NCBI GenBank assembly: GCA_019973955.1
Contig: BMAV01009759.1
Coordinates: 138,155 to 189,843 of the forward strand
Origin: Trichonephila inaurata
Taxonomy: Eukaryota
Direction: 5' to 3'
Length of the DNA: 51,689 nucleotides
Below, in pieces: positions 12,270 through 50,700 of this stretch. Made by a program: the position numbers and the translations under genes. The notes beneath the pieces are model-generated. The model ran no database searches and was not told the DNA's origin. It saw nothing but the letters and a program-made list of their open reading frames with translations. Positions within the stretch are counted from its first letter, which is position 1. The number at the start of each line of letters is the position of its first letter.

Positions 12270-12405
12270 GTGGGAAACTTATCTTCATCAGAGATAATCA
12301 CTGTAGGAAATGTTAAATCTCGTATTACAGCTCTTGTTCATAACAAAAGTATAATAGTCTGTGGTAGTTGTGAAGGTGGCATCAGATTATTTTCCTATCC
12401 AGAAC
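12270..12405 (+). CDS. WD40-repeat protein gene, exon
   Basis: Acceptor tcatttcAG, donor GTAAGT. Translation VGNLSSSEIITVGNVKSRITALVHNKSIIVCGSCEGGIRLFSYPEL. Confidence 0.7.
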
Positions 12406-13384
12406 TGTAAGTGTTTTTTCCTAAGTTGAAATAGGAATACATAATGAAGTAAAAATATCATATTTCTGTATTTATGTTGCTTCAGTAAATTTGTCTGTAT
12501 GTCAAAGTTTTTTAAATATCAATCTTTTTGACATTTTAAGCATATTTTCATTTCTTATACATATATATTAAAAGTTGTGAGAGAATGCAATTTTATTGAC
12601 GGGGAAGGGGTGGCGCACCTTTATTTAGCCTTATTACAATTTGCCTCCGACGAAGGATTGAAAAATATAGTTCATGCACAAAGTTCAAGGGATATCCATT
12701 TTTCGCATGGAATAGTCTTGAATGTTGGTAATGTACGTGGAAGTGGAAACTAGGCACTGGTTTAGTTCCCTAAAATCCCCATAAAGGCTCAATGATGTTG
12801 AAATAGGGAACTGAGGACACCATGTGCGTTATTCCACTTCATACATCATCCTTTTGAAACATTAGACATTCTACAGAAACCAAAGTGTGCGTCTAAAACG
12901 TACAGTGGAAATAATCTGTGGTACGATCTTTCCTCCACAGGGCTGAGTGATCGTCAGACTAGGTAACTTGTTCCCATTGCTGTTGTGTTCAGTTTTGCTG
13001 GTCTTGACGCCACTGTTTTAACTTAAAAGAATTCGATGGGGATATTAGCGTTTTTGGCATAGTCGTTTTTCCATGAATGCAGGGTCACTGTTTGGGTATA
13101 AGGCGCCCTTTTATGGGTTCTGTTGCACTCTAATAAAGTGCTGCAAATTATATGTGAAATACTTTTCTGTAGTATTCAAAATTTGACTTTCGAACCAAAA
13201 AGCTTTAAAAGTATATTAAAACACGTTTGTCTTATTGCTTTTTTACTATTTCATAAATTTTAAAAACAAAACAATGATAAAACATTTTTTTAAAGGAATT
13301 ATAAAAATTAGAAAATATATTCAAATATTGACTCTCCTAGCTGTAGCAGCTACAAACGCTCGTATCAATTCCTTTATATCTAAT

Positions 13385-13660
13385 TTATCCAAAATTCCAC
13401 TCTCTATGGATAAAATTGACAAGTCCGATAATCTCTCCCACACCATAGTAGATTGCATGTAGTTTTCTTATAATTTTAAGTTTTGAAAAACTTCGTTCTC
13501 CAGTAGCCACCGAAACTGGCAGAGTTAAAGAAATCTCCAAAGCTATTGCAATATTTGGAAATGTATCGGTAAGATTGTTTTTATAAATATAATTTAAAAC
13601 ATCAATAGGTGACAAATCCTCTTTAGTAAAACATCGCAAAGATTTTATTTCTTTAAACAA
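13385..13660 (-). pseudogene. hAT-family transposase C-terminal (dimerisation, hATC) domain fragment
   Basis: Translation ...FPNIAIALEISLTLPVSVATGERSFSKLKIIR... matches the hAT C-terminal signature (SxPxTSAxSERxFS). It is truncated upstream by the gypsy LTR at 13842. Confidence 0.55.
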
Positions 13661-13841
13661 ATTTAATCCATCAATGTTCTTTTCATTAACATCTTTAGTA
13701 TTTTAATTTTTGATCTAACTCTTTAGAGTGTTTTAAAATTTCATTGTCTCTCCAGTTTTTTAAATTAGGTATATACTTGAAGTAACTGTAATGTTCTTTT
13801 AATTGACTGAATCTTTCAGTAAATGATGAAATAGCAGTATA

Positions 13842-14149
13842 TGACAATCCCTCATGTTGTGTTTACGTTTTATTGGAAATAAAGAAGGCTGTACAGGAAC
13901 AAATAATATTTAATTTACCACAACGCAAGGGGGTTACTCAATAAAACAACAACACACATCTATTAAAGTAGTTATAGAAGGGAAACAGGCGTTCCCTGAC
14001 TCGACGTGTAAACGACTTTTTTCGTGGGGGGGGGGGGGCCCGGGCAGGAGGGCGAGGGAAAAAGGGAATTCCCCTTCTCAGAAGAACAAGTGGTGCCCCC
14101 TGGCTGTCGCCAATCGTCAGGGAGGTAGTGTTTAAATGTAGTTGTTACA
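13842..14149 (-). repeat. 3' LTR of the gypsy element
   Basis: ~93% identical to 20200..20506. Differences cluster in a G-homopolymer tract and at CpG/TpG sites. Confidence 0.9.
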
Positions 14150-14159
14150 TTCTCCCCCT
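14150..14159 (-). other. Polypurine tract (AGGGGGAGAA) immediately upstream of the 3' LTR
   Basis: Appears as a polypyrimidine run ttctccccct on the + strand, directly abutting the LTR terminus. Confidence 0.6.
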
Positions 14160-14314
14160 ACACCGCCGAAGACCGTCTCGACGAGGGGGTGTACTCGCAG
14201 ACATGGCATTCTCTCCGGCAGTTCCTCTAGGAATCAATGGCTGTTTGCGTGGCCTTCCTCTTTTCTTGAGAGGTACTACAGGAGACTAGGTCTCTGTGCC
14301 ATTCAAAAAGGGTG

Positions 14315-15824
14315 TTAAAGCTGATGTAAGGTAGACACATAATCAGGTTTGTCACAACTGGCTACTACAAAGGTAGTGGGAGATCTCTGGGATAACACAA
14401 TGCATGACCCGTCTCTCCTAGGCATGAGTTTTGCACTCCTGTTCTGACTCGCTTTACTTAATGGGTGAAGTTTTACCCATACCAGATCATTAATTTTATA
14501 GCTAGGACATGGTCTACGTGATTTATCTGCATATGTTTTTTGACGATCTTGACTCATCTCAATGTTTTCTTTAATTTGTGTCATATATCCTTCAAAACGC
14601 TTTAAGTAGGGTGTAAATTCAGGCACAAAATTATCGTTGTGGATGACAGACCGTAGATCAGTATTTACTTGGTCCAAAGTTCGTAGCTCTCTGGCGAAGG
14701 TTAGGTATGCTGCCGTGTGATCTGTGGACTCACATTTTGCAGTATTCAGTGCAAACCTAATAGCTGGTAGCTTTTCAATCCATAATGTGTGGTTGTTACC
14801 TACCATCATCGCCAAGCGAGGTTTCAAATCCCTATTTTTCCTTTCGACTGGGTTTGTCTGTGAGTGATATACGGGAATGAGACTATGATTGATATCCAAG
14901 ACAAAACATAACTGTTGCATTACCGCACTCACAAATTGAGTCCCATTGTCACTTATTAGTCGACGGGGCACTCCGTATCTTAGGAAGACTTCATTTAGAA
15001 GTGTCATGGTATATTCTTTAGCAGTAGCTTGCTTTAATGGGAATAACTCCACCCATTTAGTGGTGTAATCCTCCACTATGAATATCCACTTCATACCTTC
15101 TGTCGTTTCTGGTAAAGGACCAAAAAGATCAATAGCTATGCTCTCAAATCGTTGAGCTGGAACAGGGGTCTGCAGAAGACCAGCAGGTTTCTCATTTGTG
15201 GCTTTGTATCTAGTGCACTCTGAGCAGCTTTTCACATAATCAGCAATAAATTTTCTCATACCAGTCCAGTAATATTTCGTGGAAATTCTAGAAAAGGTAC
15301 CATAATGTGCAGCGGTGGAAGCATCATGGTGCAATTTTAATATCTTCTCTCTCATGAGTATGGAAAACTAGTTGAGCTTCTTCAATTTCAGCATGAGGTG
15401 AGTACCAGTACAGTACTTCCTGATTCATCACGTACCCTCTCCCAGTCCAATTGGCAAAGTCAAATACCTTGTTGGGATTTTCAAAACAATCAATTATCTT
15501 TTTTAGCTCAAGATCCTTCAATTGTTCTGTTCTTAGCTCATTAGCAGTTCTTGTCGGAAAATCAATAATTATAGTTTTTAATTCGCAAATTTCCTCATCC
15601 CTAGACTCTGGCCTGGAAAGCATATCTGCAATAAAATTGCAGTTCCCTGGAAAATAGTCAATATTCAGATTGTAAGATTGTATTTGAAGTGCCCATCGGG
15701 CTAATCTTTCGGTTGGTGATGTTAAACTCATCAGCCACTTTAACGGTTGGTGGTCGGATGCCACTGTAATTTCTGCCCCTTCAATATATCCTCTAAATTT
15801 GTTTAAGGCCCAGACTACAGCCAA
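14315..15824 (-). CDS. gypsy pol: RNase H C-terminal part plus integrase (two overlapping ORFs joined by a frameshift near 15340)
   Basis: An ADMLSRP motif is followed by an HHCC zinc finger (HHDASTAAHYG...CSECTRYK). DDE-core residues are present (IAIDLFGPLPET, ISDNGTQF). Confidence 0.85.
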
Positions 15825-16257
15825 AGGCTTCTCGCTTTGTTGTGGAGTAATTTTTTTCAGCAGAACTCAAGAGTCTACTGGCATATTCTATTGGCTGTTC
15901 ATCGGCTGGGCTTTCTCCTTGTAACAGAACTGTGCCTAGGGCGTCACTGCTTGCATCCGTACGGATGATAAAAGGCTTTTTAGGATCAACTTGTCTCAAT
16001 ATTGGCGGGGTTATTAAACATTGTTTGAGGGTTTGAAAAGCTTGTTGCTCAATTTCACTCCATTCCCAAGCAGTACTTTTCTTTGTCAAGTTGCTGAGGG
16101 GTCTAGTAATATCTGAAAAATTCGGGATGAATTTTCTATACCATGAACAGGTCTGTAAAAATGACTGTAGCTGCTTTAGGTTTCTTGTGGAAGGAATGTT
16201 TTGTATCGCTGCAGTTTTATCCTGATCCACCTCTATTCCCTTAGGAGTTATCCACAA
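15793..16257 (-). CDS. gypsy pol: RT-connection/RNase H domain (frame-shifted relative to RT and IN)
   Basis: Contains GIEVDQDKTAAI and RTDASSDALGTVLLQ, typical of gypsy RNase H. Stop codons separate it from the RT ORF. Confidence 0.75.
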   Translation of the reverse strand: MWITPKGIEVDQDKTAAIQNIPSTRNLKQLQSFLQTCSWYRKFIPNFSDITRPLSNLTKKSTAWEWSEIEQQAFQTLKQCLITPPILRQVDPKKPFIIRTDASSDALGTVLLQGESPADEQPIEYASRLLSSAEKNYSTTKREAFGCSLGLKQI

Positions 16258-16313
16258 TCCAAGGTATTTTACACGAGAGCAGAAAGCTTACATTTTTCTT
16301 TGTTAGCACATAA

Positions 16314-17153
16314 TTAAAATTTTTTAAGTCTGTCAAAGACCATTCTTAAGTCTGCAATGTGTTGTTCGAACGTTTCAGACAACACAACGATATCGTCTAA
16401 ATACACCAGAATATTTACACTTGGCAATCCATTACGAAATTGGTCCATAAGACGCTGAAAGGTTGCTGGGGCATTGCGAAGTCCAAATGGCATTCTTTTG
16501 TACCTAAATATACCAAAAGGGCAAACGAATGCAGTCTTGTCCTGGTCCGCTGGATTGACCTCTACCTGATGATAACCGGATTTTAAGTCAAGGGTAGACA
16601 TAAAAGCAGTAGATTTAGCATCATGTAAAAGAACATCCATGAGGGGCAGTGGATATTTGTCAGGTATAGTAATCGCATTTAGTTTACGATAATCTATACA
16701 CAACCTAACAGTTCCATTAGACTTGGGCACTGAAACTACTGGGGCTGCGTATGGGGACTCGCATTCTTCTATAATATTATCAGCCAAAAGGTTATCGATT
16801 TCTTTCCTGTTTGGAGATAGTCTATAAGGTGCAGTTGAAACTGGTGGGTAGTCACCTGTGTTTATAAAGTGTTTTACGAATGGAGTTGGTTCTCCCCCTA
16901 GTCTGAAAACATCTTTACTTTCATTAAGCAGGACCATCAAATCATTTCTTTCTTCTACATTTAAGGCTTGTCCTTCTTCTCGCAAAAGGAGATCATTTGT
17001 CTCAGTTTCATCAACAGTGTTTCTATGTAATGGAACCTCACTGGAAATCGAATTTGTGGGGCAAGAACTACTATTTATTTCAACAGGACTGTCGTCTAAA
17101 GGTAAAGGAACATCTTTCGAAAAAAGGTATCCTGAAGATTGGCTTGTCACCAA
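16314..17153 (-). CDS. gypsy pol: reverse transcriptase domain
   Basis: Contains FGLRNAPATFQRLMD and the catalytic YLDDIVVLS (YxDD) motif. Confidence 0.85.
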   Translation of the reverse strand: MVTSQSSGYLFSKDVPLPLDDSPVEINSSSCPTNSISSEVPLHRNTVDETETNDLLLREEGQALNVEERNDLMVLLNESKDVFRLGGEPTPFVKHFINTGDYPPVSTAPYRLSPNRKEIDNLLADNIIEECESPYAAPVVSVPKSNGTVRLCIDYRKLNAITIPDKYPLPLMDVLLHDAKSTAFMSTLDLKSGYHQVEVNPADQDKTAFVCPFGIFRYKRMPFGLRNAPATFQRLMDQFRNGLPSVNILVYLDDIVVLSETFEQHIADLRMVFDRLKKF

Positions 17154-17400
17154 AGTACCAAAAATCGTTACGCATGTCCATTACGATTCCTGATGTCCTT
17201 AAAAAGTCAACACCTAGAAGAGTGTGGTTACCTTTCGCATGAGGCAAAAAAATTAAATCAATTTGGAAAGTTCGTCCACCTATGGTGATTGGTACCGTAG
17301 CTTTTCGAACAAGGGATGTGGATTGTTGGCCATCAGCTAGGCACATAGCAAGATGAAATTCTGAGAATTTTTGTCCATGATTTCTCAAGAATTTAAACAT
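17080..17400 (-). CDS. gypsy pol: aspartic protease region
   Basis: Contains FLPHAKGNHTLLGVDFL and lies downstream of the DTGAS motif. Its position between gag and RT fits a protease. Confidence 0.55.
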   Translation of the reverse strand: MFKFLRNHGQKFSEFHLAMCLADGQQSTSLVRKATVPITIGGRTFQIDLIFLPHAKGNHTLLGVDFLRTSGIVMDMRNDFWYFGDKPIFRIPFFERCSFTFRRQSC

Positions 17401-17418
17401 TAATTCTCCCCCGACTAA

Positions 17419-18651
17419 CTAGCTGGCTCCTGTATCAGCACAAACTGTGCCTGTAGCCTCATAGACTTCGATGTCAAGTAGAGCTACTGGGGAGGTAAGA
17501 GAAGTAAAAATCTGTATGGCGTTGACAGATGCACTCTCTGTTTTTTGTGAGCATTTTGGACATTTAGCTTTTATAAATCCAGGGTTGCCACAACCATAGC
17601 AAGAAATAGGTGGATTGCAACCAGTGTTGATATTTCGTGCTGGCATGTAGCTAGGATTAGCAAAAGTACTGTTGTGGTTACCCGAAACATTCTTTTCAAC
17701 TCTGAATGAGTGAGACTTTCTAAACTGCGGATTGCCTGTGTTCCTAGAAAACCGAGTATTTAGCTCTTGCGGTTTCGGGGGTTTTGTTGATTTTTGCGAA
17801 GAGGGTTTAACATTTTCGTATGAGTCCAGCTTCTCAGCTAACAGGATCATTCAGTTTTTCCTACGTGTCTGGGAAATGATTCTTGCAATCGGGTGGACAC
17901 CTTTTTGTTATTTGATCTGCTATTATGAGATCTTTTAAGGTTTCAAATGATTCGATTTCTAATTCGCTTAGCCAACCTTCGAAAAAGGTTCTTAGCTCGA
18001 AAAAGAAATCTTTCCAAGTGGAATGATCCTGTTTCTGATGTCGACAGAAAAGGACTTTGAAATGGTCAGTTGTCAGCTTAAACCTTTGTAATAAAATATT
18101 GCGAATGTGAGCATAATTCTTAAACATCTTTTCTGGTTCTCTTGCAATTAACCTGCCAATATCACTTGGAAGAATTCCAATTAAGTGTGATACCCAAAAA
18201 TCTGCAGGTACATTTAGACATTTAGGAGCTTCATTTGTCTTTCGAACATTGTTAAAAATAATGATATGTCATCTTTATCAGGAATGAATGTGGGCAAGAC
18301 TGTTTTTAAATCCAGCCTCATGGGGCTAGAATCCATTTGAGGGGAATCCACTACGGAAGCTGGAGGATTTTGTGCTTGTAATTTAAGCTTTTCAAGCTCA
18401 AATGCTCTTTGATCAGCTAGGCGCTTATCCTCCCGTTCTATTTTCTTTAAGGCTTCGACTTCAAGCGATTTACGTTCATCAATAATGTTATCGAGCATCT
18501 CTTTCACAAACTGCTCATTGTCCTGAAAGAATGTACATGAAGTAATTTTTTCGCGTAAGTCAATTATTTTATCCTCTAAAGTCACAGAGACTCGTAGCTC
18601 GCTTGCTAAATTATAGAGGCCTATTTTCTTGCCTTTTGAGAGAAAAGCCAT
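17419..18651 (-). pseudogene. gypsy gag (capsid/nucleocapsid) region, split by at least two frameshifts into three ORF pieces
   Basis: ORFs 18214..18651, 17861..18127 and 17419..17850 are consecutive but in different frames. A CCHC-like knuckle CYGCGNPGFIKAKCPKC is present. The protease motif LLDIEVYEATGTVCADTGAS sits at the C-terminal end. Confidence 0.7.
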
Positions 18652-19853
18652 ATTTGTCTTTTAAAATAAAACTAGATTCAGGTTTTAAAGTATACAGGAA
18701 GCTATAAGTTTTCCTAATAGCAATGGATACGTATTAACTAATCATTAAACAACTACCTTCCCTGTAGAGAAAACATAAAAAAAGAAAAATTTACAATAAA
18801 GGGAATAAACAAAACATATTTACAAAGTTCTTCAGAAAATCTAAATTAAATGCCATAAATTCAACTGTATATAAAATATAAAATTAATCACGAGTCACAA
18901 AAGCAAAAACTCCAATACGTATTTGTTAAACTGATAATATTTATAACATACACTCACACTATTTATAGATATAAAAGTACTTTTATCAAAATATAATTCG
19001 AAGCTTTTCGCAATAACACAGGATGTGACTCATGCAATTAAAAAAAATATATATTCTCAAGAAACGTAAACTTTAAAATCACCAAATAGAACTTTTTGAA
19101 AGCTATAAATATATCAGTTCATGAAATAAAGAGTAAAAATAGCTAAATCTGAAAACATAACATATATCAAAGTTTGATAATTAAATGAGGTTTCTCCCCT
19201 TCTGCTTGATAGCAGAAATTATCTTTTATTTCAATATTTAACTTTAAGAAAAAAAAAAAATATGTTCAACAGCTCCTTATAATAATAATAACCAAGAATT
19301 TCATCATTTACTCAATATAGCAATTATTTACAGCAAATTATTATATAGCAACTATTTAAAATGCACCAATACATATTTATCAATAATGTTATACCAGCTG
19401 CTTCTTCCTGAAAGCAGAAATGATCTTTCACTATTTAAATTTCAAAGTTATTTTCAACAGCAGATTGAAATAATTATAATTAAAAAAATTGCATTATTGA
19501 AACAAAATATACAAATACTAATATCTCAAGAAAGATAAATGATCATATTCCTCAATATTATTGTGCAAAAGATTTGTTACATCTACTCACAAATTTAATT
19601 TCCGTTTTCTTCTTCAAGTACAGGTGAAGATTTCAGTAACACATAATCTCGGATGAGATTGTTTTTTTGTTTCAAAATAGCAGATATCTCGTAAACATCA
19701 CTCGCGCACTTCAAAACGATATTGAATATATTTATATTTAACGTAAAATGTGTTACATATTTCTTAAGCACACCATTTTCTTGATCACGATGGTAATTTA
19801 AACACATAAATCAACACAATTTCACTTTGGATTATTTTCTTCACATAAAATCG

Positions 19854-20010
19854 AGCACTTTCACCTTAGTATCCGGATGATACTAAAACCGCTAGTTTTC
19901 CAACGAAAAGATGAGCACTTTCACGTTAGTATCAGGACGATACTGAAACTGATGATTTCAAGCACTTTCACGTTAGTATCAGGACGATACCAAACTGATG
20001 ATTTTCAGAT
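19854..20010 (-). repeat. Three tandem ~47-bp repeats in the gypsy leader, each with the palindromic core GTATCaggacGATAC
   Basis: The unit gcactttcacgttagtatcaggacgatactgaaactgatgatttcaa is visible three times, with small variants. Confidence 0.8.
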
Positions 20011-20178
20011 GCAATCAATCACTTGCACGTTGACTGTCGGGGCGACACACTAAAATTTCCATACACGTGGTCAGTTGTTCGAAGAAAAGCGTCATGTCCG
20101 CTCAAGGAAAACGTTGGTCAGCATTTCGGTGCCCTGGTCCAGCTTAAACGTTGGGCCAACATCTCGGATTCCGATCAA

Positions 20179-20196
20179 GCCCCACGTTTGGCGCTA
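20179..20196 (-). other. Primer binding site, tRNA-Lys type
   Basis: The reverse complement reads TAGCGCCAAACGTGGGGC. This matches the canonical tRNA-Lys(1,2) PBS TGGCGCCCAACGTGGGGC at 16 of 18 positions. It lies 3 nt downstream of the 5' LTR. Confidence 0.6.
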
Positions 20197-20199
20197 CTG

Positions 20200-20506
20200 T
20201 GACAATCCCTCATGTCGTGTCTACGTTTTATTGGAAATAAAGAAGGCTGTACAGGAACAAATAATATTTAATTTACCACAACACAAAGGGGTCACACAAT
20301 AAAACAAAAACACACATCTATTAAAGTAGTTATAGAAGGGAAATAGGCGTTCCCTGACTCGACGTGTAAACGACTTTTCCGGGGGGGGGGGGCGATCCAG
20401 GGCAAAAAGCGAGAGAAAAAGGGAATTCCCCTTCTCAGAAGAACAAGTGGTGCCCCCTGGCTGTCGCCAATCGTCAGGGAGGTAGTGTTTAAATGTAGTT
20501 GTTACA
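20200..20506 (-). repeat. 5' LTR of the gypsy element
   Basis: Direct repeat of 13842..14149. Ends in TG..CA when read in element orientation. Confidence 0.9.
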
Positions 20507-23005
20507 AGTATCTAATATTATATTGTAAAATTTAACCTTAAATTTTTGTCTTGGATTGTTGATTGGTTTGTTGGTTTTTCATCTTGAAATAGTTTCTTTT
20601 TAAACCTGTTTCGACTTTGTGGAAAATCAGTATCAGTATCAAAATTTGTTTTGCATAAATGAAAACAACCTGCAGAAACGAAAACAACAGTAAAGTAAAA
20701 TTAAAATAAAATTTCATTTTATTGCTTAGAAAATATAAAACACGTAAAATTGCAAGCGTATAGTTAACAACTTTTATCTAAGTAACATTAAATTAAAAAA
20801 CTATAAGTGTTATATAAATTTTGGCGCCCCCCCCTCCTGCCACAGGTACCCTTGTACGGTGAACAATTTTGCAACCCCCACGCATCAGCCCTGCATGAAT
20901 GATCCCAGAATTCAGTTTCCACTGAATAACTTCGGTGGATACGGGGTTTCATTTTGGAATTTACTTGAAACATATATATAAACAAATTAAAGGCCTACCG
21001 CAAAGTGAACCATCTAGCAATAGTTTAGGTTGTTTATTTATATTTATATTTTTTATGGAAAATAATATATTATGTACATTGATTGTTATCTGTTTAAATA
21101 TATAAATGATCTTGTAATTTTTTGTAAAAGTAGTGAGTTAATATCAAATATTATTTTTATCGTAATTATTTAAAGTTTAATCCAATTAGCAGCCAATTAC
21201 TACAGATTATCAGATACAACTTTACATATTATGGAACATAAATAAAACATAAATATTTTTGATAAAAAATGGATGCTTCTAATTTTAACATTATTAAAGT
21301 TTCATTTTGTAACAATAATATTCATATATTTATTTATTGTAATGTTATTTCGAATCGTTAACATTGTAATTTTGATTTGTTAATAAAGATAAATTAATAT
21401 AATAATTTATTAGATATTGTTCAGAACATGGTTACTCTATTAAAGTTTTTAAAACTTACATTTGTAATAAGTCTAAAGCTAGTTTCTATTAATTTACATC
21501 TTTATAACAATTATTTTATTTGATCATTTGTGTGTTTACCAGTAGACTTATTTGGAATTTATTTGAATTTTGTTGTTCATTACTTTTAGTTTTAGCACTT
21601 TTCGAAAAGAAAACTTATTTAGCTAGTTTTATATTTTGTTTTCATATTTTCTGTTTAACATACTGTACTTTTCATTCAATAATACCTTGGAACAGTTATT
21701 TCTTAAAATACAATCTTGTACTCTTCATTGTTTTAGATCTTTAAAGGGAAAATTTGTATACTACTTTTTATTACTTTTTGTACTTAGCGAATACAAATTA
21801 ATTTAAGCATTTTTAAATTTCTTACACCTTTCTAAATTAGATTAAATTTTTATGCTATAAGATTATGAAGATTTACATTATAGAAATTAATTTTAGTATT
21901 ACATTTTTTTCAAAACTGCATTTTTTCTTATCTTATTGCATTCCTGTAATATAGGCAGATAAAGTAGAAGGTTTGCACCTTAAAACTATATTTAACCCTG
22001 CAGTTTTAGTCCTATATTTGAGTTTTCTATGGTATTACTATGACTATTCTTCTTGAACCTGTACTGTTTTTTCTATATTCTTACATATTGTTCAACGTTG
22101 AGTTAAAGTTATTGTAACTTAGACAGCTATTATTATAGATTATTAAGGATTATACTATCTGCTCGTATTGCATATATTTTTTTAAATGCATGAAATTTGT
22201 TTATTTTGTGTTTTTTTTAAAAATTGTCCAAGAGAATTATTTCTTTATTATGAAAAACTGCAGAAATAATTATAATGCGAGAATATCGTGGAAATATTTC
22301 AATAAAACATATTGTATCCAAAAACAATTGTGTTGGAGTGATCTACACAAACTGTGTTGGTGATGATTTCAAATCTACTGTGAATTTTTTTCTGCTATAA
22401 AGATTACCATATTTTTCATGCTCTTCTGCAATACAGGAAATCTCTGAATAATTTTCTCTTGTGACTAATATCTATTGCAATAACAAAATTATCGAAGTGT
22501 CATACCTTTCAAATTGAATGTTCCCAATCAATCCCTCTAATTTGCATTACTTAATTTAAATGTAAATTTATTACATTAAAATTACTTGTTTCAAAATCAA
22601 ATATATTGCTTCAATTATAAATTAAAACTAGGCAAACTAAAATTATTGTCTCTGGTTGTAAAATAATGAAAATTTGTGTCCTTCATGATGTAAATAATTT
22701 TTAAATGCTTTTCAAACTCGTGAATCGTTTTCTATTGCATTATTGTATTTTTTTATCTTTTGGATTTCTGTATGGCATGAGGATACTTGTCTCTGTATTC
22801 CCAGCTGCATTACAAATTTAGAAAAAATGCATGTGTTCTGAACTGGATTCAGTGCTTTAAACTCGACATAAAATTAAGTTATGATTCATTTGAAACCCAC
22901 AACTGCCTCTATGAAGCATTCTTTTAGTATATTTAAATACAACTTTATCAAATTCTTATTACATTTTTTGTTGTATATCTATTAGGTGGAACTTTTTTTT
23001 TATAA

Positions 23006-27328: not shown

Positions 27329-27619
27329 CGGTCATTCTCATATTCTTTAGAAGGACACAGAAGAAGTATTACTTCTTGTTGTCTAAGTCAAAATCGAGAA
27401 ATTCTTTCATGTTCTTTGGATGGGACTGTCAATTTATGGAAAGTACCTTCTCCAGTTCAAGATATTCATTTATATCATTCAGCTAATGTGACAGGACTTT
27501 GCATTTCTGTATCTCAAAAAACAGTTATTAGCTCAGATGCTCATGGTAATATTGTGCTTTGGAAATTAGTATTTTCTTCTCCACCAAATTGTCCTCTAAT
27601 ATATGCTGGAAAGAAATCT
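27329..27619 (+). CDS. WD40-repeat protein gene, exon (largest; spans two WD repeats)
   Basis: Acceptor ctgttttttttAG, donor GTGAGT. Translation RSFSYSLEGHRRSITSCCLSQNREILSCSLDGTVNLWKVPSPVQDIHLYHSANVTGLCISVSQKTVISSDAHGNIVLWKLVFSSPPNCPLIYAGKKS. 291 nt in frame, with GH and xLW WD signatures. Confidence 0.85.
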
Positions 27620-34191: not shown

Positions 34192-34293
34192 ATCCATGAA
34201 GATTCAATAACTGGCATCATAAAGATTGGCTGTTACATTTTCACTTGTTCTGTAGACAGAACATTGAAAGGCTGGGATTCATCTCTAAAGCAG
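34192..34293 (+). CDS. WD40-repeat protein gene, exon
   Basis: Acceptor aactcttctAG, donor GTACAT. Translation IHEDSITGIIKIGCYIFTCSVDRTLKGWDSSLKQ (WD SxDRTLKGWD). Confidence 0.75.
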
Positions 34294-36541
34294 GTACATT
34301 TATTACTGTTTTAATGCTGTTACTGTTTTGTTTACTATATTAATACTGTGTTATGTTTTAATTAATTTTTGCCAAGCATTTGTTTATTTAACTAATACTC
34401 ATTGTGCTTGTGTGTGTACACAAATGCTATAGAAACTGATTATCTTAGTACTATTTCTAGTACTGGTATGTATTAAGTTGAGTATATATATTCTGCATTT
34501 TGGAAAATTTTGCATAGACCGAATGTCCTTTATGCTGTTTCAAATGGTATTTCCCTCATATGTGACTAAAGATATCCTGAACTTTGAATTATCCATTTCA
34601 TCTACTTTTCATTTCATTTATGAAATTGGGAATTTCAAATATGTTAAGGAAATAAATAACGTTACAATACTTTCTAGACTTTTATAATTATATAGTTTTG
34701 ATGTAATTTTATATTTAAATATGTAAGAGACCATAAAATCTTTCACCTGTTCAATGCAATTAGATTTTGAACTGTGAAACCTTTTTTGTTATTGAAATCC
34801 TATGTTGCTTTTAGAAAATATCGACGTTTTCTAAGAATATAGAACAGTTAAAAAGAAATTAAATATATATTTTACACTTTTGTTATGTGTAAAAAGTTGC
34901 GACTCTTGATTTGAATCAAACAAACTTCCTTTTTTAAGACTTATTAACCTGATAGAAAATTATTAATACCTTTTCTGAATGTTCAGTAGCCAACTTTAGT
35001 TATATTTTTTTGTGATTTTTCTAAAATTTTGTTTAATGTTTCCAATCTGCACATGGTATATTTATTTCCATCTTGACTTTGTCTATTGTTGCATTATCTG
35101 GTTTCAATGAAACCAAGAATAACCTTGTTTTCTTTTATGGTGTAAATAGTCTTTGTCAAAAAGGAAAAATAAATAAAATTTCCTGCACTGTTGACAAAAA
35201 GTAAGTTTAGTTATCTTATTTATCTTATTTTAATGGCAAAAAAAAAAAAAAAAAATAAAAAATAAATAAAAAAAATAACATCATTGGTCGATGATTAATA
35301 TGGAATCTGATAGATCATCAACTGCGGCTATGGCATAATAAATGACTCAGGTACAGATTTCCAGAGCTTCCTCATCACAATTGAATAACTTAATTCGTAT
35401 ATGTTCATTAGAGTGCTTTATTAAAAACTTGATAAATGATAAAAATTGACTGTCATATAAAATTAAAGAATAAGGCTTATTGATGTATTAAAATCTATTC
35501 TAAGGAAAGCGGAGAACTTCATTAGGATAAATAATGTATTTTCTTTCAGTAGTAAGAGTTTCTCATTTTAAACTCTTTGTGCTGCGCTTTTTGATGCAAT
35601 ATTAACATTTTTATCAAAAATAATTAAAATGCTTGACTCTCCATTTGATTATAAATTTTTTTCAAACAATCGGAAAAAAGTCACTAGTTTGTTTGTATGT
35701 TTTTTTAAATTTTTTAAAAAATACAGATCATTTAATGGAGTATTGACTGCCAATGAACTCTCTACGCATTCTTTGATATGAATTGTCACTAGAAAGTAAG
35801 AGATGTTCTTCAGATCAGGGGCGGCTCTAGGGCCGGACAAACTGGACCCCTGCCCGGGACGGCAAATTTTAAGGGTGGCATTTGGATCGAATTTGAGATA
35901 TATTTTTTTGTTGTTGTTTCAAAGAATTTTATATATTTTCTGAAATATTATTGGGTGGGTATTTGGTATTTTATTTAACGTATCTTATTTCCTTATTTTG
36001 TGCTCTATGTTTAATGCCAGTTTTCTTTTCTGTTGAAACTTGAAGGGTTCGAGGTGGGACAACTTGTTAAATCATAAATTTGATATGCTTACACATCTTT
36101 CACTAGTAACTTTCTCCCCAGCCTGGAGTAGGGTCACAATGGACATTCCTTTCACCCATATGATGTCCGGTTTCAGCAATCCAAAAGGGGACTAGGATAA
36201 TTAGAGTTTTTGGTAGAAAGAGAGCCACATGATATGTGTTTTATTTTAGTTTTGAGTGTAGAAACTATAGGTTAAAATAAACGTTTGTGATCCCCACCAT
36301 CAGTAAACACCTTTTCAAAGAAATTATCCTGCTGAAATGGGCGATTCCTTCTCTTACATTTTACTCGTTTCAAATAATAACATGCAATTATGTTCTTAAT
36401 TTCAAATTATTTTGTATTTTTTAAGACTTAAAATAATATATAATTGTTATGCTGCCTTTTTGTTCTCAAAAATTCAAGTTTTATAGATGTGTTTCTATGT
36501 GAACAATTAATCTTTTTTAATTATAGTTTTTTGCTTTAGAG

Positions 36542-39197: not shown

Positions 39198-40427
39198 CAC
39201 TCCAGAGCCAAAACATTATGACCACCCCTGCATTTTGAATTAACTCGCCTGGATGACGTGGAAGGCACGTGATCAGGTGGAAGTGGTATTTAACTGCTGC
39301 TGGAGAGTCTGAAGAATCGTTCTTTTACTTCTGTGTGTGATGAGAAAGGCTGCGGATCTAATCGACTTTGATAGAGGGCAGATTGTAATAGCTCGAAGGC
39401 TCAGAACAAGTATTTCCGAAACTGCACGACTCGTGGGTTGTTCGCAATCTAAAGTTGTTAGTACTTATGCAAAGTAGATGAATGGTGGTGAAGCCAAAAG
39501 AGACGACATGATGTTTGGCGGCCACACGCCATCAAAAAAAAAAAGTCGTAGGAGACTGTCTTGCATGGTGAATCAAAACCGGAGCCAGACAGTGACTCAA
39601 CTGACAGCCCAATACAATGCAGGGCTAAGTAGAATAGTATCGGAGCACACTGTTCAGCGGACACTGTTCAGCGGACACTGTTGGATATGGGGCTACGCAG
39701 CAAACGTCCCACTCGTGTGCCTTTGCTGACCAAGCGTCATCGCCAACTGCGCCTGCGCTGGGCCCGGGAACATCGCCACTGGTCCGTGGATCAGTGGGGG
39801 AGAGAGTTGCCTGGTAAGATGAATCACGGTTTGTCATTCATCACGCCAATGGCAGTGTCAGGATACGCCGTCTTCCCGGCGAACAGTTGCTCCCTCAATG
39901 TACAGTAGGTCATACACAGGTCGGTGGTGGTGGTATTATGCTTTGGGGGACGTTCTCTTGGGCGTCTCTGGGACTCGTGGTTGTGGTAGAGCAGACCATG
40001 AATGATACAGGGTATCTGAACATCATCGTGGACCAGTTGCACCCTTACATGGCGTCTGTTTTTCCAGCTGGAAATGGAATATTCCAACAGGACAACATCC
40101 CGTGTCCCAAGGCTAAAATTGTGTTGGAGTGGTTCCAGGAACATGATGCTGAATTCCAGTTAATGTCCTGGCCGCCTAACTCACCGGATGTCAATCAGAT
40201 AGACCACATTTGGGATGTCATGGGACGGCAGCTCAGAGCTCAAAGACCACCAATTCGCAATATCTCGGATTTGTGTGATCGTTGCTTAAACATCTGGTAC
40301 AATCTGTCTCCGGCCATCTACCAAGGACTTGTGGCATCAATGTCAAGGCGGGTTGAAGCTGTGTTGCCCTCCAAAAATGGACCAACTCGTTATTGACAGG
40401 TGGTCATAATGTTTTGGCTCTGGAGTG
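39198..40427 (+). mobile_element. Tc1-like DNA transposon (Tc1/mariner superfamily)
   Basis: Perfect 29-bp TIRs CACTCCAGAGCCAAAACATTATGACCACC at 39198..39226 and 40399..40427, flanked by TA on both sides. The internal transposase carries a QQDN(A/I)PCH-type motif and SWPPNSPDVNQIDHIWD. Confidence 0.9.
39340..40396 (+). pseudogene. Tc1-like transposase, frameshifted
   Basis: The N-terminal HTH part [21 protein letters not shown]..., the middle part and the C-terminal DDE part lie in three different frames. A 14-bp tandem duplication at 39647..39674 causes one of the shifts. Confidence 0.8.
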
Positions 40428-49325: not shown

Positions 49326-50700
49326 TATTGGTGTAGCAAAGTTTTAATTATTATTAAGAAGTAAACGAGAGATACCTGGATAAATTTTTTCTGCATTTTA
49401 ATTGATACTAATGTACATAATGTTGCAATTTACAGATATTAAGGTTTCTGTAAGGTATAATAATTCGCAGTATGGAGAAGAAAGAGATTCGTACTATGAT
49501 TAAGTTCCTTTATTGAAAGATTACATTGTCAGGTAAACTACGGTGAAATGATGGCTATTTATGCAATTGATAACACGTTACATTACATTGTTGGGAGGAG
49601 GAAATGGAATGTCTATATGTCCACATATTCCTCACAGACGATCCAAGAAGTGGAAAATAATCACTCAATCACACGATGCTATCACAATAAGGATAATGGA
49701 GGAATTTTTCCTATTATACCGAAGAGCAAACATTCAAATGATAATGAATGAGACTAATATCGAATCATAAAGTATGTGGAAAATAATTCACGACGTCAAA
49801 GGTCTTAGCACGTTGTGTTACATATTACTGATTCATTTTCAGAACCAAACACGGTATGATCTGTCAAGAGGAATGATGAATCTTTTGAAGCAAGACGAGG
49901 AGGATATTTCTGGTCACATGATAACTATGGATGAATCTTGGATCTAATAATATGATCCAGAGATCAAAGAGATAAGCAAGGAGGGGGGGGGGGGGGAGAT
50001 ACCGACTCTCCTCTTCCAAGATATCTTCCACATAACTATGGATGAATCTTGGATCTAACAATATGATCCAGAAATCAAAGAGATAAGCAAGGAGGAGGTT
50101 GGGGGAGGAGATACCGACTCTCCTCTTCCAAGATATCTTCCACATGATAACTATGGATGAATCTTGGATCTAACAATATAATCCAGAGATCAAAGAGATA
50201 AGCAAGGAGGAAGAGTGTGTGTGTGTGGGGGGGGGAGATACCGACTCTCCTCTTCCAAGAAAGTTAAGCCAGGAAATCTGTAGGCAAGATCTTAGTTTTT
50301 GGAACGAAATAATTTTTTTTATTGTTATGGAGGTATCTTATATCTTAACAAACAACCCAAAGAGGGGTTAGACCATCACTAGTACACACTGTTGAAAAAA
50401 TTCCGATCAAGAAATGGAGTGGTATGATCACCAAAGTTGTCCGACTTCTTTTCAACAATGCATCTGCCCATTTACCTCTCTTTGCGAGTGAGGAATCAAG
50501 GATCACACCCCCCAAGCGTTTTCTTAAAAAAAATTTTCAGATCTCTAAAAACCACTGCAGTGTCGGAGATTTGACAAAACAAATGATTTAATTCGAGAGG
50601 CAGAACAAGAGTTTTCCATACGAGATGCTGAATTCTAATGTGATAGCCTTCAACACTCCAAGAAATGCTGAAGAAATGTATAACTCTGGTGATTTGATTT
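49326..50700 (+). mobile_element. Second mariner-like element, highly degenerate, carrying an internal tandem triplication; its 3' part is disrupted by the SINE at 50700
   Basis: TIR-like tattggtgtagcaaagttttaatt at 49326. The ORF starts MEKKEIRTMIKFLY... at 49472. An ...ITMDESWI..YDPEIKEISKE block matches the mariner VTMDETWIHHYTPESKQQS motif. A C-terminal FFNNASAHLPLF remnant matches LFHQDNAPCH. Confidence 0.5.
49917..50268 (+). repeat. Tandem triplication (~117-bp unit) of a mariner transposase-derived segment, with variable G-homopolymer and (GT)n cores
   Basis: Three units starting with cat(ga)taactatggatgaatcttggatcta...agataagcaaggagg...gagataccgactctcctcttccaaga. Confidence 0.85.

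Follow-up and report, generated by a model that had tools for sequence, protein, structure and literature searches.

We analysed a 51,689-nucleotide stretch of Trichonephila inaurata DNA (contig BMAV01009759.1, positions 138,155 to 189,843; hereafter the window), in which a preliminary description made from the letters alone had picked out a degenerate Ty3/gypsy retrotransposon. The plus strand of the window carries a multi-exon WD40-repeat gene with very long introns (73-44641), and its minus strand carries one complete long terminal repeat (LTR) retrotransposon at 13841/13842-20506. We are highly confident that 13841-20506 is a degenerate copy of a spider-lineage Ty3/gypsy (Metaviridae) element, lying antisense in an intron of the plus-strand gene. 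Elsewhere in the window, neither another copy nor a solo LTR of this element was found, and an Rfam scan of the window returned no match at gathering thresholds. Features of the element described below lie on the minus strand.

A direct-repeat search returned a single long pair, 13842-14149 (308 nt) and 20200-20506 (307 nt). Both copies read TGTAACAAC...GGGATTGTCA on the element strand and possess TG...CA termini (TGTAAC...TTGTCA), as expected of LTRs. A global alignment covers both repeats over their full length and shows 21 substitutions and a single 1-nt indel, giving 93.2% identity and a divergence of 6.84% (7.2% after Jukes-Cantor correction), in agreement with the 307-bp TG..CA repeats and the divergence of about 6-7% originally reported. 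The 5' LTR occupies 20199..20506 (TGTAACAAC...GATTGTCA(C)), comprising the TG..CA core at 20200-20506 and an extra terminal base at 20199, while the 3' LTR occupies 13841..14149, comprising the core at 13842-14149 and a terminal T at 13841.

The 5-bp target-site duplication (TSD) AGTAT, also part of the preliminary description, is present on both sides with a 5/5 match: at 20507..20511 on the 5' side of the element (AGTAT on the plus strand, ATACT on the element strand) and at 13836..13840 on its 3' side (AGTAT on the plus strand). Its boundary needs adjustment by 1 nt, since base 13841 separates AGTAT from the TG..CA core of the 3' LTR and must be counted as part of the LTR for the duplication to abut it. 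The simplest reading is an LTR ending in ...CAT with a 5-bp TSD. Two full Trichonephila clavipes copies have the same geometry, with ...GATTGTCAT followed directly by AAATT at locus L004 and by AATAT at L006, and with the same pentamers preceding their 5' LTRs. A 6-bp TSD carrying one mutation, with TG...CA ends, is a possible alternative; it matches at 5/6 positions at the window copy and fits both T. clavipes loci too. An LTR start one base earlier (TTG...) is ruled out, as the final A of the polypurine tract (PPT) precedes the 3' LTR.

Between the LTRs, Pfam searches of the minus-strand open reading frame (ORF) fragments recovered the domain order protease (PR), reverse transcriptase (RT), RNase H (RH) and integrase (IN), with matches to RVP_2 (weak), RVT_1 (E=1.3e-29), RT_RNaseH_2/RT_RNaseH (E-values to 7.5e-27), Integrase_H2C2 (5e-15) and rve (5e-10). 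The catalytic and structural motifs listed in the preliminary description are all in place: DTGAS at 17436..17422, YLDD at 16403..16392, the HX7H and CX2C zinc-binding residues of integrase at 15331..15215, and its D, D(35)E core at 15136..14834. The gag region (17437..18651, with ATG at 18651) precedes the aspartic protease (17123..17436), the reverse transcriptase (16281..17122), RNase H with the connection (15339..16287) and the integrase (14160..15352), the last comprising the H2C2 zinc domain, the DDE core, an SH3-like C-terminus and a basic tail. No chromodomain match was found at the integrase C-terminus, where Pfam returned a weak match to SH3_Tf2-1 ahead of the basic tail.

The gag zinc knuckle differs from the CCHC knuckle previously reported. 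At 17601..17551 the element encodes CYGCGNPGFIKAKCPKC, a CX2CX9CX2C motif with Phe at the His position, which is not a canonical CCHC knuckle. All close spider relatives carry only this His-less form; the canonical CCHC motif, besides CX2CX9CX2C, is found only in more distant, mostly insect, relatives. The nucleocapsid CCHC array varies in number or is missing across Ty3/gypsy lineages (PMC2577118), so the His-less knuckle does not exclude membership.

The sequence AGGGGGAGAA at 14150..14159 abuts the 3' LTR and forms the 3' PPT, a feature also listed in the preliminary description. The tract is coding as well: pol continues across it, with R-G-R-M as its final residues, and terminates at a TAA inside the 3' LTR, directly after the first TG (window 14148-14159). 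Among 120 homologues listed, 19 end in GRM or GRL, so the PPT belongs to the coding sequence throughout the family. No env ORF was found between pol and the 3' LTR; pol ends inside the LTR and no further ORF follows.

At the opposite end, a putative primer-binding site (PBS) at 20179..20196, TAGCGCCAAACGTGGGGC, is separated from the 5' LTR by a 2-3 nt spacer, (C)AG. It matches the complement of the tRNA-Lys(CUU) 3' end at 16/18 positions, or 19/22 when extended, as the earlier tRNA-Lys assignment held. It is the sole site in the window within three mismatches of TGGCGCCCAACGTGGGGC, where shuffled sequence gave an expectation of 0; we take TGGCGCCCAACGTGGGGC to be the complement of the conserved animal tRNA-Lys(CUU) 3' end. 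A perfect 13-mer of the PBS, TGGCGCCCAACGT, occupies the same place in T. clavipes, Araneus ventricosus and a metagenome relative, and priming by tRNA-Lys is therefore likely a family trait. With PBS and PPT both present beside the paired LTRs, the element has the structural signals of an LTR retrotransposon.

Using the joined conceptual pol of the window copy as query, we recovered 3398 homologues, the best being spider proteins of 74-92% identity: A. ventricosus at 78%, and T. clavipes at 81% and, over part of the length, 92%. An intact 1516-amino acid gag-pol, P0002, is 74% identical to the window copy at 99% coverage. The identical 1516-amino acid protein is encoded in three unrelated ENA metagenome assemblies (L001-L003), one of them labelled a marine metagenome, with 762x coverage in one assembly; contamination, or DNA of arthropods present in the samples, could account for this. 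The metagenome relative in L003 shows a pol-LTR (~343 nt)-PBS arrangement. Among solved structures, the best matches were yeast Ty3 Gag-Pol (7q5b, E=3.7e-116 across RT-RH-IN) and Ty3 RT (4ol8, 1.8e-88), followed by a caulimovirus (3.7e-54) and retroviral RTs (~1e-35 to 1e-38). As the Ty3 matches stand far above those to retroviral RTs, assignment to the Ty3/gypsy superfamily appears sound, in keeping with the position of IN after RT and the closeness of RT, RH and IN to Ty3. The preliminary description had named the absence of RT or integrase matches as one result that would overturn it; RVT_1, rve and the homologues were all found.

The exons either side of the insertion place the element in an intron of the WD40 gene. 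The upstream exon, 12270..12406 on the plus strand, has an acceptor ending TTTCAG and a GTAAGT donor, while the downstream exon, 27329..27568, has a Y-tract-AG acceptor and a GT donor and encodes LEGHRRSI...LWK repeats. Further examples of exons lie at 1414-1548 and 34192-34311. When twelve plus-strand exons were joined, they matched WD40-repeat proteins at E=5e-32; single exons gave weak Pfam matches to WD40 and EML beta-propeller families, and an earlier query using three weak exon candidates gave no match. The insertion site itself is AT-rich and non-coding (GC content across the window is 23-30%). Together with WD40 exons bearing canonical splice signals on the opposite strand to either side, this supports the antisense-in-intron placement proposed at the outset. 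The same intron holds, on the minus strand, a fragment of the C-terminal dimerisation domain of a hAT transposase (13385-13660; Dimer_Tnp_hAT, E=9.6e-7), ~180 bp from the 3' LTR.

Some points weigh against this account. The Ty3/gypsy placement is based on similarity and domain order, and the tRNA-Lys reference is the conserved animal sequence; a search for tRNA genes in the window and at four spider loci yielded none. The best database match to the host gene is only 26-28% identical, and no close orthologue was found in the protein database, spider proteomes included, where only generic WD40 matches appeared. Moreover, the exons at 12270-12406 and 27329-27568 are phase-incompatible, which suggests that at least one small exon between them is probably unplaced and makes the intron limits approximate.

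The PPT sequence occurs a second time within the element. AGGGGGAGAA at 16890..16899, between PR and RT, lies in the L-G-G-E codons of a conserved FRLGGEPTP motif and is identical to the 3' PPT core, making it a candidate central PPT. We compared this site in 11 sequences from ~9 lineages, with proteins 55-86% identical (the window copy, L001 and L006-L014). All 11 fit the pattern nnA GGG G[G/A]A G. The nnA codon is CTA, TTA, CCA or GTA, its final A being constant though the residue varies (L, P or V). GGG is used for the first Gly throughout, in contrast to third positions nearby, which vary freely. The 3' PPT core, directly 5' of the LTR start TGTA[AG][CT], is AGGGGGAG in each lineage except two with AGGGGAAG, and exactly these two also have AGGGGAAG at the internal site, where it costs them a change from Gly to Glu. 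They form one clade, and the co-variation thus counts as a single event. This conservation at the nucleotide level suggests that the internal AGGGGGAGAA is probably a central PPT. We lean towards an arachnid or arthropod Ty3/gypsy family with a functional central PPT, in which a copy of 8-11 nt of the 3' PPT is retained in the L-G-G-E codons.

It is possible, if rather doubtful, that the internal tract is kept only for LGGE coding, or for another RNA-level reason, and does not act as a plus-strand primer. The site does code a conserved peptide, the support for a priming role is comparative, and the co-variation is one evolutionary event. Central PPTs are established in lentiviruses, Ty1 and the Arabidopsis element EVADE, while in the same study the gypsy element ATGP3 showed few if any (PMC7197481); a limited search of the literature turned up none described for a gypsy-type element. 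Set against coding alone are three synonymous positions that are invariant in ~9 lineages of 55-67% protein identity while adjacent third positions vary, the preceding codon that retains its final A through changes between L, P and V, and the sole lineage with an altered 3' PPT core, which changed G to E and so matches it internally. If the central PPT is functional, metazoan Ty3/gypsy elements would join lentiviruses and Ty1 in synthesising their plus strand discontinuously.

The differences between the two LTRs had been described as concentrated in a G-homopolymer tract and at CpG sites, and attributed to methylation-driven decay. The first part holds: 13 of the 21 substitutions, and the indel, fall within 37 alignment columns flanking a C12-13 homopolymer (G on the plus strand), and divergence outside this patch is 8/270, or 3.0%. 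The second part is not supported: only 3/21 substitutions are CpG transitions and 11 CpGs remain in each LTR. Comparison with the T. clavipes LTRs revealed derived changes inside the patch in both window LTRs, and the patch has the look of a tract prone to slippage or to local hypermutation. That the full 6.8% reflects CpG decay and gives the age of the insertion directly is consequently improbable, even with transitions exceeding transversions by 15 to 6 and with 4 differences in CpG context against ~1.5 expected (p ~0.06 by our own rough binomial estimate).

Because a hypervariable patch inflates the age estimate, the insertion may be younger than 6.8% suggests, perhaps about half as old. 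Arthropod neutral rates, which are uncertain, are assumed here to be ~3e-9 to 1.6e-8 per site per year. At these rates an LTR divergence of 3-7% would correspond to a rough insertion age of a few million years.

Degeneracy was mapped by tblastn of the intact relative P0002 against the element. There are seven frame changes, at ~18220, 17845, 17122, 16290, 15825, 15345 and 14342, exceeding the minimum of five proposed earlier, and four in-frame stops: in gag (DT*EK), right after DTGAS, at the end of RT (KKF*) and in the IN tail (ET*SP). By region, gag contains two frameshifts and one in-frame stop, and in the protease DTGAS is followed immediately by a stop. RT has a 5-amino acid deletion, with a stop and frameshift at its end (~16314-16285) that correspond to the stop-containing gap noted previously; RNase H has a frameshift at ~15825, and integrase has a 3-amino acid deletion, a frameshift at ~14342 and one stop. 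The copy is therefore dead. A long integrase ORF (346 amino acids), several well-scoring domains and a close, intact family member elsewhere (P0002) are all that favours a copy still functional or domesticated by the host, which is extremely unlikely given lesions spread over gag, PR, RT, RH and IN, a catalytic motif that runs straight into a stop, and LTRs and a TSD retained as in a plain insertion.

The possibility that the element belongs to BEL/Pao or to Ty1/copia, or is an env-bearing errantivirus or endogenous retrovirus, is equally remote. BEL/Pao elements share the PR-RT-RH-IN order and have 4-6-bp TSDs, and Drosophila gypsy has a PBS complementary to tRNA-Lys. In the Osvaldo lineage, too, such a PBS is typical (PMC3286476). 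Nevertheless, Pfam found Integrase_H2C2, RT_RNaseH and RT_RNaseH_2 and no Peptidase_A17 or RVT_2, Ty3 outscores every other solved structure by a wide margin, IN comes after RT (against copia), and pol runs through the PPT into the 3' LTR, leaving no room for env. The original call of a degenerate Ty3/gypsy element is thus well supported.

In the proposed history of the locus, an active family would have encoded one gag-pol polyprotein of ~1500 amino acids and would have used tRNA-Lys(CUU) to prime minus-strand DNA on a 13-nt PBS. A single copy probably integrated in minus-strand orientation into the AT-rich intron of the plus-strand WD40-repeat gene, duplicating 5 bp of target. Presumably neutral decay after insertion would then have introduced the seven frameshifts, four stops, small deletions and 3-7% LTR divergence, leaving what appears to be an inert intronic fossil.

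The leader (18652..20178) is ~1.5 kb long and AT-rich. It contains three repeats of 46-60 nt at 19853-20005, which also occur in the T. clavipes copies and each of which forms a GGUAUC-N5-GAUACU hairpin (fold z=-2.5); they may serve as a signal for packaging or dimerisation. Conservation of the leader in the T. clavipes copies is 75-92%, and their sharing it rules out a nested insertion.

Overlapping the start of the leader is a 36-nt segment (20148..20183; GGGGCTTGATCGGAATCCGAGATGTTGGCCCAACGT) that alignment shows to be absent from the T. clavipes copies, and which ends in a second, degenerate PBS-like sequence, CCCAACGT. It directly follows the conserved 13-mer, and its first 9 nt prolong the tRNA match (GGGGCTTGA against GGGGCTCGA) to the 19/22 given above. 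Its last 25 nt resemble the following 37-nt leader unit (shuffle p=0.0015) and not the tRNA (p=0.25). Plain read-through of the tRNA to the anticodon arm was rejected, since similarity to tRNA-Lys stops at about nt 22. One speculative explanation is that a 36-37-nt unit with CAACGT repeats at its borders was duplicated long ago, the start of the first unit being overwritten by tRNA-templated sequence. The 36 nt may thus record duplication of a leader unit combined with lengthening of the PBS on a tRNA template, from 13 to at least 18 nt.

Two other features of the window lie far from the element. A GC-rich block at 39-44 kb contains the remnant of a Tc1/mariner-type transposase on the plus strand (39478-40396; HTH_Tnp_Tc3_2, E=5e-14; DDE_3, E=6.6e-10). 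In a GC-richer patch at 49950-50290, also on the plus strand, three tandem peptide-like units (..YDPEIKEISKE..GGGDTDSPLPRYLPH..) are probably another repeat or transposable element remnant.

The element is an ordinary dead intronic Ty3/gypsy copy, one more example of antisense survival in an intron, and it leaves the current understanding of LTR retrotransposons unchanged. Annotators should mask 13841-20506 as a dead Ty3/gypsy copy so that it is not taken for genes. The candidate central PPT is the sole part worth a specialist's second look. With a single gag-pol ORF that ends in PPT codons, a stop codon in the LTR, a 13-nt PBS, a His-less knuckle and the internal PPT, the family offers a compact comparative system for plus-strand priming signals retained within coding sequence.

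The family is already present in public spider annotations, where fragments in T. clavipes (GCA_019973935.1) and A. ventricosus (GCA_013235015.1) carry automatic names such as 'Transposon Tf2-6/Tf2-9 polyprotein' or 'Pol polyprotein from transposon 17.6/297'. Full copies lie at three T. clavipes loci (L004-L006) and share with the window copy the leader, the 13-mer PBS, the PPT, the pol end ...RGRM*, the stop in the LTR and the TSD geometry. Their internal DNA is ~90% identical to that of the window copy, while the LTRs are only ~71% identical, which points to a different subfamily or species. The window copy also has the 36 extra nt after its PBS. Ty3 of Saccharomyces cerevisiae, the type member of Ty3/gypsy, has the same gag-PR-RT-RH-IN order, TG..CA LTRs and 5-bp TSD. 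It expresses pol by a +1 frameshift and uses a tRNAiMet primer with a bipartite PBS. The spider family differs from it in its single gag-pol ORF, tRNA-Lys PBS and CX2CX9CX2C knuckle, in a leader of 1.5 kb and in a probable internal PPT.

In structure, the element can be likened to the metazoan Mag lineage (Bombyx Mag and mosquito elements) in its ~308-bp LTRs, 5-bp TSD, single gag-pol ORF (in intact relatives), leader repeats, and lack of env and chromodomain. Mag-like elements have short LTRs (139-304 bp in Culex), 5-bp TSDs, often a single ORF and, in some, tandem repeats in the 5'-UTR; mosquito Mag elements are primed by tRNA-Leu or tRNA-Ser, rarely Arg (PMC3286476). Mag nucleocapsids usually have two CCHC arrays (PMC2577118). 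The window element departs from these Mag-typical features in its tRNA-Lys PBS and its one His-less knuckle. The tRNA-Lys PBS is instead a likeness to Drosophila gypsy and the Osvaldo lineage. Mosquito Osvaldo-like elements, unlike the window copy with its ~308-bp LTRs and 5-bp TSD, have LTRs of 1-2 kb, 4-bp TSDs and a length of 9-12 kb (PMC3286476), and gypsy errantiviruses possess env and lack CCHC arrays (PMC2577118).

In its candidate central PPT, the family resembles HIV-1 and other lentiviruses, yeast Ty1 and EVADE, all of which have, within pol and close to the midpoint of the element, a second PPT core matching the one at the 3' end (PMC7197481). Those tracts were demonstrated biochemically, in lentiviruses or Ty1/copia elements, whereas the evidence here is comparative and comes from a metazoan Ty3/gypsy family, with a core of 8-11 nt as against 15-19 nt in HIV and EVADE.

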